DNA of 64,000 nt from a virus (IMGVR_UViG_3300037067_027643:64001-128000), one strand, 5' to 3'; positions 36,256-49,447 are shown, numbered from the stretch's first letter. Notes: a model not told the origin generated them from the sequence alone. Made by a program: numbers and translations.

Positions 36256-37932
36256 TTATACGTAGTTTAAGTGGGTTACCACTAGCTTTCCGAAAAATTC
36301 GGGGCGAACTATTTTTTTTGCATATCTCGTAAGTACACCTTTTCTCGGCGTGAAGTTAGTACTATCATATACTAATGGTGTCATAATCAATGGAACATAA
36401 GGACAAAAAACGGCACCGCACTCTAAGAACTGACTACCTCTAAATCCCATCAATATGATATTTTCTTTCATATAAGGATTTTTGTAAACAGTAAAGCGAT
36501 TATTCAATAAACCTACTTTTTGTACTCCCATTGCAAATTGCATTTGGTTTCCATCAGTATCAGCTGCATAACCAGGAATTGATTCGATTATAGTAGCAAT
36601 ATCAGGAGAGCAAACCATAAAGTTAGCACCACCACGCATTGTTTTTTGGTGAATCTTGTTGCTGATTTTTTGCAATTTAGTACCTAAAGTTTGGAACCAA
36701 GTCTGTTGAGTATATTTAAGAGCGTATCCACTTTGTAAATCTTGACTTGTAAAGTTAGATTCACCATTAGTAGTTTGTCCTGTGTGTACAGTTCCTATTT
36801 TAGCTGACCAATAATCAGTTGTGATAGCGTTAAGAATCAACATATCTAAGATTTCTAAGTCAATTTCCATTGAAATATATTCACTCAACATACTTGTTAA
36901 TTCTGCTTCAGCATCAATTGAATGGTAAGCGTTTAAGTCCTGTGCAAATTCAGGAGTCCATACTGCTTTTAACTTTTTAGTTTTAGCAACAATTGGTTCA
37001 CTTCTCAATGATACGTTTATTTCTGGGATATCTAATGCGTTAGCACCTACTGATGTACCAGGAGCGTATTTATCGGGACCAGTTGTTCCACTTCCCCATG
37101 CAGGATCACCTTGAGCTTGGAAATCACCTCTATCGTAAGCTAATGGAGCTTTGCTATATTTTACCAATACTGTTGAAGCACTACCACTACACATAAAGGT
37201 TACATAACGAGTTGAAGCTGCTCCAGCACTTGTTACAGGCATTGTATTAGCTGGGTAATAAGCTTCGATACCACTACCACTAATATAGAAACTTCTTACA
37301 CCTTCTACATCGTGATTGGTTGTATTCATATCTACAGTTACTCTTTTCATTTCATCTGCTGCTACAGAAGCACTTAATGGAGCTGAATAGTTACAATCTG
37401 CCCAAGAAGCTGAAGTAATAGTTGTTGATAAACTTGCTGTATAGTCGTTAGTACTATATCCAAATCTACCTGCACCATATAAACCTTGTTCTGCATCAAA
37501 TGTTTGGTTAGTAATACCAAATACTGAATTGTTTTGTTCGTAAGTAGTATTAGTAGTATTGAAACCTGGTTGATCAGTTCCATATTTGAAATCTAAGTAG
37601 AATACAAGTCCACTAGGTAAGTTCATTGGTTGTACTGATACGAAGTCTTTAGCTGCTATTTCTGCAAAGATACGTCTTACTAATGGTAAAGCTACTCCTG
37701 ACCATTCTTCTGCACCTGTTGCTGTTCCTGTTTGTGATACTTCACTGATTAACTGTCTTGCTTGGTTTTCTAACAAAATAGCCATTCCATCTCTTTCGTA
37801 ATCACTTTTAAGACCGTCTAACAGTCCTGTTTTTTCCCATTTCTGGTTCAGAGCAATACTATCATTACGCATATTTTTATACGTAGATTTTATTTGTCCC
37901 TCTCCTATCAAATCACTAAATTTTTTATTCAT
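36256..37932 (-). CDS. Major capsid protein (T4 gp23-like)
   Basis: LLENQA, LPLVRR, VSVQPMNLPSGLVFYL, KLKAVWTPEFAQDLNAYHSIDAEAEL, CPYVPL, FTPRKGVLTRY. Confidence 0.95.
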   Translation of the reverse strand: MNKKFSDLIGEGQIKSTYKNMRNDSIALNQKWEKTGLLDGLKSDYERDGMAILLENQARQLISEVSQTGTATGAEEWSGVALPLVRRIFAEIAAKDFVSVQPMNLPSGLVFYLDFKYGTDQPGFNTTNTTYEQNNSVFGITNQTFDAEQGLYGAGRFGYSTNDYTASLSTTITSASWADCNYSAPLSASVAADEMKRVTVDMNTTNHDVEGVRSFYISGSGIEAYYPANTMPVTSAGAASTRYVTFMCSGSASTVLVKYSKAPLAYDRGDFQAQGDPAWGSGTTGPDKYAPGTSVGANALDIPEINVSLRSEPIVAKTKKLKAVWTPEFAQDLNAYHSIDAEAELTSMLSEYISMEIDLEILDMLILNAITTDYWSAKIGTVHTGQTTNGESNFTSQDLQSGYALKYTQQTWFQTLGTKLQKISNKIHQKTMRGGANFMVCSPDIATIIESIPGYAADTDGNQMQFAMGVQKVGLLNNRFTVYKNPYMKENIILMGFRGSQFLECGAVFCPYVPLIMTPLVYDSTNFTPRKGVLTRYAKKIVRPEFFGKLVVTHLNYV

Positions 37933-37951
37933 AATTTTTTAATCTCCTTCT

Positions 37952-39094
37952 TTATTTTTTATTGTTTGTTTGTTTATTATCATTACTTATGTTTGCTAAT
38001 TTTTGAAAGCGATCTCTTATTTCATTACTTTCTAAAATAACTTTTTTCTTGTTAACTTGGGTATTACCGACTATTCCTGATGCAATACTTTCGGTTAATC
38101 TTTTTGTTGTTCCGTTTACTTCTTTTTTAACTGATGTGGATTTTAAACTTTCTACTAATGTTACATATACTAATTTTACTTCTCTTAAACTGTTAGCTTT
38201 ATCCATATTATCAATTATCTTTAGTTTTTGAGATTCTGATAATTTTTCATATTGTCTAAATAATTTGTTAGCATATAAAAGTTTACTATTTAACAAGTTA
38301 ACTTCATTCATAGTAGTTTTTAATGACTTAATAACTTTGATAGCTTCTGATAAGTTTTTTTCAGCTCTTGCTGTTTTTTTCTTTTGTTCTTCTAATTCGT
38401 AATTGTTATATTCGTCATTAGGTTCATCTTCTTCTTTCATATCAGCTACTAATTCATCAATGTTGATGTCTTCATCATCGTCATCTGTTTTAGGTTCTTC
38501 TGCTGGAATTTCTTCTTCCTCTGTAGTTGTTTCTTTAGGTTCATCTTCTACTGGATCAGTATCAACTGGAATGTCATCTTCATCATTGTCTTCGTTTTCC
38601 ATTTTGATTTCGTCATCTTCTGTAGCTGGGTTTTCATCACCTTCAAGTTCTTTTAAGATTTCTTCCAATTCTTTTTCATCTTCTGATTTTTCATCTTCTT
38701 CTTGAACTGGTTCATCTTCTGTTTTAGGTTCGTCGTCTTCGATGTCAATATCTTTGTCATCTTCTTCTGATACTACTGGTTCTTCAGTATCAATTTTTTC
38801 TCCGTCTTCTTCTTTTACTGTTTGATCATCGTCGGCTGTAGATTTTACTTCGTCTTCTCCATCATCTTCCATTCCTTCTTCGTTAGTTGCTACTGGTTCG
38901 TCTTCGACTTCGATATTTTCGTCGTCTTCTCCACCTTCAACTTCTTGTTTAATTTTTTCACTAAACATTGCCTGTAATTTAGGATTGAATGCATCTGCTA
39001 TTGCTATTTTTGCATTTTTTAATGCTACTTCTTTAATCTGTTTAGCATCTGCAATTGCTTCGTCAAACAATGTTTTGTTTGTTGTTTTTGCCAT
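37952..39094 (-). CDS. Prohead scaffold/core protein (gp22-like)
   Basis: Highly acidic centre, coiled-coil C-terminus, directly upstream of MCP. Confidence 0.8.
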   Translation of the reverse strand: MAKTTNKTLFDEAIADAKQIKEVALKNAKIAIADAFNPKLQAMFSEKIKQEVEGGEDDENIEVEDEPVATNEEGMEDDGEDEVKSTADDDQTVKEEDGEKIDTEEPVVSEEDDKDIDIEDDEPKTEDEPVQEEDEKSEDEKELEEILKELEGDENPATEDDEIKMENEDNDEDDIPVDTDPVEDEPKETTTEEEEIPAEEPKTDDDDEDINIDELVADMKEEDEPNDEYNNYELEEQKKKTARAEKNLSEAIKVIKSLKTTMNEVNLLNSKLLYANKLFRQYEKLSESQKLKIIDNMDKANSLREVKLVYVTLVESLKSTSVKKEVNGTTKRLTESIASGIVGNTQVNKKKVILESNEIRDRFQKLANISNDNKQTNNKK

Positions 39095-48558: not shown

Positions 48559-48577
48559 GTTATAATATTTCTCCTTA

Positions 48578-49447
48578 TTATTTACTAATATTCTTTAATT
48601 CATCTATCAACTGATAAAATTTTAATAAGGCTACCACAGTTGAATCTTTAATCTGAGTCTTACTTTCTTTAATTAAATTGAGCTGGTTAAGTGTTTCTTT
48701 TAATTTTATCTTAATTACTTTATCATCTATCGTCTTAGCTACCTCTACCACCTGTTTTTTAATCTTTGGAATCTCTTTACAAATAAATTCTTTTAACTTT
48801 ACATTATCACTAATATTATTGATATATTCTCTTAATAGATTCTTCTGTTCATTATTTAAATTTTGATATTTCTTATTAAATATTTCCAACATTTTCTTAT
48901 ATGAAAACAACTGCATATCCCTATCTAATGAATCAAATTCTTTTGTTGTATTTTCTTTTATTGTTTCGACTGAGCTTTTATTCTTTTTATTATTTGTAAT
49001 ATGTTCTATCAAAGTAAATCTACTATCTACTATTTCTGTCGCTGGAACATTACCGATACAACTTTCAAATAACTGATATATAGAAGCTAGTTCTTTGTAA
49101 TTATTTATTTTAGCTTTTACAAATTCATTTATCTTATAACATTCATTAATTTTTTTAACTAAATTATATTTCTGTTTTCTTAGTTCATTGTTATTTAATG
49201 ATTTTCTTTGAGATATAACAGTTTCTATTAAATGAACAGCTTTATCTTGATTTCCTTCGTATTTAGTTTGAAGCAAAGTATTGTATAAATAATACTCTTT
49301 ACTAAGTTCAGAATTCTTTTTAAAAAATTCAGATAATATAGTTGTTGCTTTACATTGTACACCACTAAGTGTATCCGAAGCAATTTGTCTTACAAGTAAC
49401 TCAAATAAAATACCTGTGTTTTTAAATTTACTGTGCTTATTCTTCAT
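48578..49447 (-). CDS. Head-cluster hypothetical protein
   Basis: 289-aa ORF (KHSKFKNTGILFELL) directly after portal, ACTATTTATA motif upstream. Confidence 0.65.
   Translation of the reverse strand: MKNKHSKFKNTGILFELLVRQIASDTLSGVQCKATTILSEFFKKNSELSKEYYLYNTLLQTKYEGNQDKAVHLIETVISQRKSLNNNELRKQKYNLVKKINECYKINEFVKAKINNYKELASIYQLFESCIGNVPATEIVDSRFTLIEHITNNKKNKSSVETIKENTTKEFDSLDRDMQLFSYKKMLEIFNKKYQNLNNEQKNLLREYINNISDNVKLKEFICKEIPKIKKQVVEVAKTIDDKVIKIKLKETLNQLNLIKESKTQIKDSTVVALLKFYQLIDELKNISK

Follow-up and report, generated by a model that had tools for sequence, protein, structure and literature searches.

Phage bS21 accompanies Shine-Dalgarno-led head genes in a large virus with a predicted Bacteroidota-type host

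Introduction

The ribosomal protein bS21 is the commonest ribosomal protein encoded by viruses, and its function there is still a guess. Here, we report on a phage bS21 gene that lies in the head-morphogenesis block of a large virus, among genes led by Shine-Dalgarno (SD) sequences, within a window of 64,000 nucleotides (the whole stretch analyzed; bases 64001-128000 of the single 285,744-bp viral contig IMGVR_UViG_3300037067_027643).

Ribosomes of Flavobacterium johnsoniae hide the 16S rRNA tail in a pocket of bS21, bS18, and bS6 (PMC7797042, PMC9976891, PMC13000457). The bS21 signature of the Bacteroidia is Tyr54, which stacks on A1534, with Ile55 beside it, and the aromatic residue is said to be peculiar to the phylum; a C-terminal region far less basic than that of bS21 from other phyla also belongs to this type. 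Replete F. johnsoniae ribosomes need a 13-bp SD with a free energy (dG) below −13 kcal/mol, and initiation fails if one base is mismatched (PMC13000457). Ribosomes without bS21 free the 16S tail and accept weaker SDs (PMC13000457; PMC9976891), as do those of bS6/bS18 pocket mutants that retain bS21 (PMC13000457). More than 10% of wild-type ribosomes lack bS21, and such ribosomes favor SD mRNAs and disfavor SD-less ones (PMC13000457). In the Flavobacterium work, it is bS21 that determines if ribosomes hide their anti-SD or can use it, and the sole natural client found is the host's own rpsU.

The position of phage bS21 genes near head genes, their late expression, and the idea that the product replaces host bS21 have already been published (PMC6375957, PMC7162821, PMC9723584). 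Chen et al. (2022) reported that phage bS21 works like the host's, with SDs outside their analysis, and a Phe at the Tyr54 position occurs once among their 61 phage proteins (PMC9723584). For the rpS21 of huge phages, Al-Shayeb et al. (2020) proposed that an N-terminal extension helps the protein compete for binding or gives phage mRNA preference in initiation (PMC7162821).

Materials and methods

Open reading frames were called on the whole contig (GC content, 25.5%; 493 genes; 93% coding), and names of the form wNNNNN denote window genes by start coordinate (e.g., w49447, w47031, w44899). SD-like words of the AGGAGG family were sought at −18 to −4 of starts. Gene class was assigned by the last promoter upstream within the same-strand run. 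Relatives comprised 80 IMG/VR loci and 80 metagenome loci around homologs of the major capsid protein (MCP; 54-64% identity), which were scanned in six frames with a bS21 profile from an exhaustive homolog search.

Results

The head-morphogenesis block (36256-49447, minus strand) includes about 15 small genes without known families (Table 1). An earlier note, made from the sequence of the window, had placed a bS21 homolog inside this head cluster, and the assignment held: the product matches PF01165 (45.1 bits; cut-off, 27; E 8.3e-12; residues 42-89) and the PHROG "ribosomal protein S21" (E 1.4e-6), and its closest solved relatives are the Protein Data Bank (PDB) chains 9i5v_9 and F. johnsoniae 7jil_z (down to E 1.2e-9). 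By these matches, it is a genuine member of the bS21 family.

On hand checking, 17 of the 20 block genes carry an SD word (AAGGAG, AAGGA, GGAG, GAGG, AGGA, or AAGG) 6-12 nt before the ATG, with duplex energies with the 16S tail of −4.2 to −9.7 kcal/mol. All starts for which the earlier note had claimed such words proved to have one at this distance, namely, 40708, 41331, 42009, 43115, 43514, 44294, 44899, 45598, 45975, 47992, 48558, and 49447, as well as MCP (37932), the scaffold-like gene (39094), the protease (46670), and the tail tube; 47031 and 47330 are also SD led. The MCP word is AAGGAG, with G at −15, −14, and −12 (dG, −9.7). The three block genes without an SD are an SprT-like gene (40013), a 119-aa gene (45275), and bS21 itself, whose upstream sequence is TTTAAAAATCCATTTA (dG, −2.3). 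Genome-wide, an SD-like word precedes 62/493 genes (12.6%) versus 5.5% of 5,000 random positions; by automatic calls, the count is 16/19 in the block (one gene being mis-called) versus 46/473 elsewhere (Fisher P = 4.5e-13). The SD enrichment in the head block is real and far above chance. The words combine complementarity to the 16S tail with a set distance from the start and above-chance frequency, and G peaks at −15 to −11 in the phage leaders match G-15, G-12, and G-11 of rpsU.

The same pairing recurs in relatives. Most related loci have bS21 one or two genes before MCP, on the same strand. Among 105 evaluable loci, 90 were bS21 positive and SD rich, 12 were bS21 negative and SD poor, and 3 were discordant (agreement, 102/105), and MCP has an SD in 101/108 bS21-positive loci versus 1/13 bS21-negative loci. 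The scaffold-like gene is kept in both groups (105/108 and 12/13, respectively). Scanning the contig of the nearest relative, L002 (MCP 64% identical; GC content, 23%), yielded no bS21, and its orthologs of w49447, w47031, the protease, w44899, the scaffold-like gene, and MCP are all SD-less, all six being SD led in the window; the portal ortholog is present in L002 and is SD-less in both phages. The complete genome of the cultured Flavobacterium phage vB_FspM_immuto (immuto) likewise gave no match to PF01165; its SD-like words number 9/217, and its MCP is SD-less.

The MCP tree places the window beside L002 and L003, both without bS21 and SDs (support, 99), and a second clade of this kind is nested among the bS21-positive rows, with four state changes for bS21 and five for SD richness. 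Three independent pairs are available; across random pairings, typically two or three go in the same direction and rarely one goes in the opposite direction. This comparison supports, with limited independence, a link between bS21 and SD-led genes for abundant proteins, and the link is cleanest for the window versus L002 and L003 and versus immuto.

Two kinds of promoter mark the genes of the phage. A host-type promoter, TTTG-N19-21-TAnnTTTG, has 53 copies genome-wide versus 13-24 at other spacings; 25 of them are located 20-40 nt upstream of a start, and 32 genes have one within 80 nt. The window has 10 copies versus 3.0 expected, and 0 shuffles reach 10. Two early sub-classes were seen, one of the form AAATAAATTTGG-N19-T(T/A)AnTTTTGTA and the other with the fixed downstream word AATAATTTTGTATATTAAAA (examples in the window at 13953-13984, 28134-28165, 30290-30321, 9007-9038, and 23251-23282, with others in the genome); they may mark different early/middle timing. 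The late promoter, tttttACTATTTATATAAATA, has 13 copies in the window versus 1.84 expected (0/100 shuffles reach 13) and about 27 genome-wide before structural genes, preceding the portal, terminase region, sheath, tube, baseplate-side genes, and first SD-block gene. Its core, TATTTATA, is common to immuto, Microcystis phage Mel-JY01, and the near-complete IMG/VR genomes G011 and G013 and contains TATAAATA, the late-promoter word of phage T4.

SD-like words precede 25/374 genes (6.7%, chance level) in host-promoter operons versus 33/93 (35.5%) in late-promoter operons (P = 1.6e-11). This comparison by gene class had been proposed in the earlier note, and it bears out the observation made there that the early-type small genes checked, like bS21, have A/T-rich upstream regions only. 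Within the late class, SDs are uneven (head block, 84%; remaining late genes, 17/74); SDs are missing from the portal, TerL, and several large late genes, and the sheath carries AGGAG. On the minus strand from 36000 to 53400, a search for terminator-like sites found none besides a hairpin at 36203-36230. The 13-kb block including bS21 is probably one late transcription unit, because this only terminator-like hairpin on that strand follows MCP.

In SD-less leaders of the phage, A has a frequency of 0.76 at −3, 0.72 at −5, 0.62 at −6, and 0.73/0.72 at −12/−13; the same adenine positions drive initiation in F. johnsoniae (PMC6847099). The sigma-A consensus of Bacteroidetes is TTTG at −33 and TAnnTTTG at −7, 19-21 nt apart (PMC6847099); the consensus and the usual length of the 5' untranslated region are given in PMC6847099 and PMC9723704. 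A Bacteroidota-type host, as the earlier note had assumed, is well supported but indirectly, because three independent features point to it: the promoter words, the adenine peaks of SD-less leaders, and chance-level SD use in early genes. A Campylobacterota-type host (AAGGA sites, extended −10) was considered and set aside in view of the −33 TTTG at Bacteroidota spacing and the SD-free early genes. Scanning genome contigs with the bS21 protein gave no confirmed match, hence no bacterial neighbor of this bS21 and no direct host link, and look-alikes of the protein in the Protein Atlas are all viral bS21 clusters, uninformative on the host. The closest named MCP relatives include those of immuto (52%), Mel-JY01 (55%), and Rhodothermus phage RM378 (37%). 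Intergenic DNA of immuto (NC_055915), taken as a promoter control, contained no TAnnTTTG, so the control failed and the promoter argument rests on the match to the published host consensus. Immuto uses a repeated early word of its own, TATATTTAGGTATCAATAATTAAA (NC_055915.1 1-100000; L194 and L195).

The phage bS21 (109 aa) has a disordered, basic N-terminal extension of 41-48 aa followed by a two-helix bS21 core. An AlphaFold2 model has helices at 49-63, 65-73, and 78-108 (pLDDT 89-98) and residues 1-48 without secondary structure (pLDDT 54-61 over 1-40 and >89 over 41-109); Foldseek against the PDB gave only weak matches, all to mitochondrial bS21 (E 0.2-0.8) and none significant. A word-indexed homolog search returned a single near-identical match, and an exhaustive one returned 315 matches, none named; for the 93%-identical protein P0002, a search for an encoding contig found none on record. 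The extension (41 aa here) is about 15-45 aa long and ends in (I/V)(V/I)PG in most of 82 distinct bS21 proteins from relatives. In HMMER alignments to 7jil_z and 9i5v_9, Phe91 falls in the Tyr54 column with Tyr92 next to it; across the 82 proteins, this column is Y/F/H in 34 and R/V/A/L/N/I/E in 47. Mean tail charge, computed for related phage proteins only, is +4.5 in the aromatic class and +7.5 in the non-aromatic class. As a side observation, aromatic bS21 pairs with AAGGA before MCP (23/34 related proteins) and non-aromatic bS21 pairs with GGAG, AGGAG, or AAGGAG (40/47); between the two, the site moves by one base in the direction of the 16S 3' end, which may reflect phylogeny or host only. 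A search of the genome for bS18 and bS6 homologs found none.

Discussion

The interpretation given in the earlier note is supported in part. Our best explanation, offered tentatively, is that phage bS21 swaps into the 30S subunit, frees the anti-SD, and boosts SD-led phage mRNAs. Ribosomes of a Bacteroidota host would keep the 16S anti-SD locked on the platform through bS21, bS18, and bS6. Early phage genes would be written in the host dialect (TTTG/TAnnTTTG promoters, adenines at −3 and −12/−13, no SD), and the bulk proteins (MCP, scaffold-like protein, protease, about 14 small head proteins, tube, sheath, and SSB) would be led by SDs of 4-7 bp in the register of the host's only SD-led gene, rpsU. 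Such SDs would be inert on replete host ribosomes and usable once the anti-SD is free. Phage bS21, made from an SD-less start in the middle of the late head operon, would enter the host 30S in place of host bS21 and shift it to an anti-SD-free, SD-competent state; SD-led phage mRNAs would thereby gain a channel closed to host mRNAs except rpsU, and SD-less host mRNAs would be disfavored. The anatomy, class bias, host-type signals, and co-occurrence in relatives are shown here; incorporation into ribosomes, anti-SD release, and the translational boost are inferred.

A functional link between bS21 and the SD-led genes is plausible because weak SDs should be inert on replete ribosomes of such a host and favored on tail-free ones, and the data suggest that the phage re-opens a translation channel that the host keeps closed. 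Any tail release must use a feature other than the Tyr54 column, where Phe91/Tyr92 looks host-like, and the basic N-terminal extension is the obvious candidate. It is possible, if doubtful, that phage bS21 is a switch that makes SD-blind Bacteroidota ribosomes SD-reading, that leaders of the most abundant phage proteins have been rewritten for this private channel, and that bS21 and the SD leaders form one co-evolving two-part system, gained or lost together in related phages. The window genome and its relatives offer what may be a second, much larger set of natural clients of the bS21 switch; if true, they would provide a clear natural example of a virus that resets mRNA selection through one ribosomal-protein swap, as well as a tool for orthogonal expression in Bacteroidota.

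Several observations weigh against this explanation, some of them in the protein itself. The alignment of the bS21 C terminus with host residues that contact the anti-SD, which the earlier note had put forward as a check, did not favor it: the phage protein is aromatic, though not Tyr, at the Tyr54 column (Phe91, then Tyr92) and looks host-like there. The tail is weakly basic, its net charge of +5 over 29 residues being close to the mean of the aromatic class. Because of this charge and the aromatic pair Phe91/Tyr92, the sequestering contact that is best known may be preserved; by the one diagnostic residue, anti-SD release is not favored. Aromatic and non-aromatic bS21 groups both come from SD-rich relatives, and loss of the aromatic residue is not what accompanies SD use, because 34/82 proteins keep Y/F/H. 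Lying in what is probably the same transcription unit as its supposed targets, bS21 has no head start on them. SDs also precede non-late genes, namely, SSB (AAGGAG), DnaB, a ribonucleotide reductase (RNR) piece, and QueE. The description of the SD class as late genes in the earlier note thus stood for the enrichment in late operons and failed for these genes and for the SD-less portal and TerL; it is more accurate to say that SDs mark proteins required in large amounts, which are mostly late, and they sit almost only on the most abundant virion and DNA-binding proteins.

The relatives contribute further points against. L017 and L049 have bS21 and few SDs (L049 probably through a mis-called start), the MCP of L017 being SD-less despite its bS21, and L022 (GC content, 53%) and L178 are SD rich with no bS21 seen. 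The association amounts to three or four independent changes, for which a sign test is not significant, and the bS21-negative metagenomic relatives are fragments (9-35% complete). Mel-JY01, whose host is recorded as Microcystis, has bS21 in the same position (L192; PP395634.1 22183-22410, between the protease and MCP genes, with its own SD, AAGGA) and 18/31 SD-like words; should this host record be correct, bS21 in the head module also occurs outside the phages of Bacteroidota. The near-complete marine genomes G011 and G013 have about 30% SD genome-wide and 22-23% outside late operons, without the A-3 peak, i.e., without a Bacteroidia leader signature, and their hosts may read SDs anyway. Part of the bS21-positive, SD-rich relatives probably infect other phyla, and the link is partly host-confounded across the clade because of Mel-JY01, G011, and G013.

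Other readings of the same data were weighed. One that we consider unlikely holds that the SDs are real and exploit bS21-free ribosomes, drawn from the natural pool (>10% in F. johnsoniae) or from one enlarged by infection, with phage bS21 being host-like and sequestering; its job might then be to let translation of SD-less phage mRNAs continue once the host is shut off or, in imitation of the rpsU feedback, to serve as a governor whose rising level shuts the SD channel. The resemblance of Phe91/Tyr92 and the non-basic tail to the Bacteroidia signature suits such a role, but the occurrence of SD-led head genes only where phage bS21 is present is then left unexplained. bS21-free ribosomes do exist in wild-type cells and favor SD mRNAs (PMC13000457), although about 10% of ribosomes looks a small share to serve the virion proteins made in the greatest amounts. 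Replete ribosomes would make phage bS21 from its SD-less start, and SSB and other pre-late genes are SD led before late bS21 could act; yet a phage that depends on bS21-free ribosomes would profit from eliminating bS21 rather than from providing it.

It is similarly improbable that the host is not SD-blind, being one of the Bacteroidota outside the well-studied Bacteroidia or having a looser pocket, with SDs as ordinary strength signals and bS21 as a lineage-linked passenger with a general role in ribosome takeover. SDs do track abundance over timing (present on MCP, sheath, tube, and SSB and absent from portal and TerL), but these abundant proteins are expressed without SDs in the nearest relatives and in immuto. 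Relatives with bS21 include the Microcystis-recorded phage and marine genomes in which about 22% of non-late genes are SD led, the DNA comes from groundwater and landfill metagenomes, and similar TAnnTTTG promoters are reported beyond the Bacteroidia; against this, the early genes are at chance for SD (6.7% versus 5.5%) with the F. johnsoniae adenine pattern, as for an SD-blind host, and the phage bS21 has the aromatic feature that is described as specific to the phylum. Very improbable, finally, is a reading of the purine-rich words as an RNA processing site, the site of a translational regulator, or part of a transcription signal. Many are merely AAGGA in an A-rich leader, and spacers of 10-12 nt are long by Escherichia coli standards, but the words stand at a fixed distance before 17 starts of the block, match the 16S tail by complementarity, share the register of the rpsU SD of the host, and recur before MCP in 101/108 bS21-positive loci with differing flanks; the promoters are separate, well-defined words further upstream.

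Other features of the window and genome

Features of the window are listed in Table 1. The ten genes at 41077..45975 are probably prohead core, scaffold, or internal proteins. The SprT-like gene, two genes from bS21, was considered as a protease of host bS21, an activity speculated upon in PMC9976891; the gene is absent from all 121 related loci and is therefore not part of a conserved bS21 system. The portal gene encodes 1211 aa, of which the portal profile covers 835-1070 only. TerL has an insert at about residues 282-371 that matches RNR-associated and unfamiliar PHROGs and looks intein-like. The RNR large subunit (genome 43941-45356, outside the window; L181:7941-9356) is a 471-aa piece that matches only positions 201-524 of a 975-position profile, and the gene is possibly split or interrupted. 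Twenty-two tRNA genes (25199-29581, minus strand) form three clusters that serve most amino acids and include tRNA-Ile(tat); late-promoter words are interspersed among them, with copies flanking the clusters at 26582, 28085, 29019, and 29836.

The DNA was found in groundwater and landfill metagenomes. The IMG/VR "provirus" label of the contig (G000, 100% completeness) was checked: GC content is flat (22-28%) to both ends, and inspection of the ends found no terminal repeat and no evident host-like flank.

Table 1. Coordinates of features in the 64,000-nt window (positions counted from its first base)
Feature	Position	Strand	Remarks
Tail tube	6378-6869	+	phrog_4542 E 1e-22; AAGGAG 9 nt upstream; own late promoter 6206-6215
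Terminator-like hairpin just 3' of MCP	36203..36230	-	Likely end of head transcription unit
MCP, gp23 type	36256-37932	-	PF07068 E 4e-75
Conserved 380-aa gene directly before MCP, scaffold-like by position	37952..39094	-	SD AAGGAG, dG −8.2
SprT-like zinc-metalloprotease-domain gene	39309-40013	-	PF10263 E 2e-7; no SD
229-aa gene, function unassigned	40019..40708	-	SD GAGG; almost no homologs in related loci
bS21	40724-41053	-	109 aa; PF01165; no SD upstream
Ten small/medium genes, function unassigned	41077..45975	-	SD-like words in nine
DUF3008-carrying gene	42027-43115	-	One of the ten genes in 41077..45975
119-aa gene	44916-45275	-	No SD; one of the ten genes in 41077..45975
Prohead protease	45993..46670	-	phrog_207 E 1e-51; SD AAGGA 9 nt upstream
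Five small head-operon genes (289, 182, 217, 97, 111 aa)	46696..49447	-	SD-like words in order AAGGA, AAGGAG, GGAG, GGAG, AAGG
Late-type promoter core ACTATTTATA (full form tttttACTATTTATATAAATA)	49489..49498	-	Ahead of first SD-block gene
Late promoter copies in window	49489-49498, 53201-53210, 55311-55320, 6206-6215, 4301-4310, 8 more		
Portal	49515-53150	-	1211 aa; portal profile at 835-1070 only
TerL	55343-57523	-	726 aa
508-aa tail gene adjoining 971-aa gene	60239-61765	-	AGGA
971-aa late gene, start region, extends beyond window end	61784..64000	-	AGGAG 6 nt upstream

Comparison with known systems

The window phage resembles the Bacteroidetes phages of Chen et al. (2022) in being large (theirs roughly 290-330 kb) with many tRNAs, in having bS21 among terminase, portal, protease, and MCP genes with an aromatic residue at the Tyr54 position, and in inviting the same idea of late-infection replacement of host bS21. 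In their clades, bS21 is on the reverse strand, GC content is 31-34%, and genomes are 293-331 kb, whereas here bS21 is on the same strand inside the head operon, GC content is 25.5%, and the genome is 285,744 bp; because of these differences, the window phage belongs to a different lineage. An SD-led head operon, and its absence in bS21-less relatives, is not described in their study. Like the rpS21 of huge phages (Al-Shayeb et al. 2020, PMC7162821), the protein has a basic N-terminal extension before the bS21 core. In that work and in Mizuno et al. 2019 (PMC6375957), missing SDs are tied to rpS1, not rpS21, and neither reports SD-led structural genes as a partner of phage bS21.

The closest parallel in a host is F. 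johnsoniae rpsU (McNutt 2023, PMC9976891; Arpin 2026, PMC13000457; Naeem 2026, PMC13000453), whose mRNA is SD led although the system otherwise lacks SDs. Translation of rpsU depends on whether the platform-bound anti-SD is held by bS21, and the phage shares the rpsU SD register, with G at −15 to −11. The host has one such gene, whose 13-bp SD (dG below −13) is strong enough to rival the pocket, whereas the phage has more than 30, with SDs of 4-7 bp (−4 to −10 kcal/mol) that should not open the pocket alone. The phage bS21 gene would escape feedback of the rpsU type because its own start is SD-less.

Immuto and L002 share with the window phage a gp23-type head module (MCP 52% and 64%, respectively), A-rich leaders, and the late promoter core CTATTTATA/TATTTATA; unlike the window phage, they have no bS21 and no SDs on the orthologous head genes. 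In a full-text literature search, no publication turned up that connects SD-led phage genes to a phage bS21. The pairing of bS21 with SD-led leaders, set beside the single rpsU client of the host, is a new, testable functional lead.

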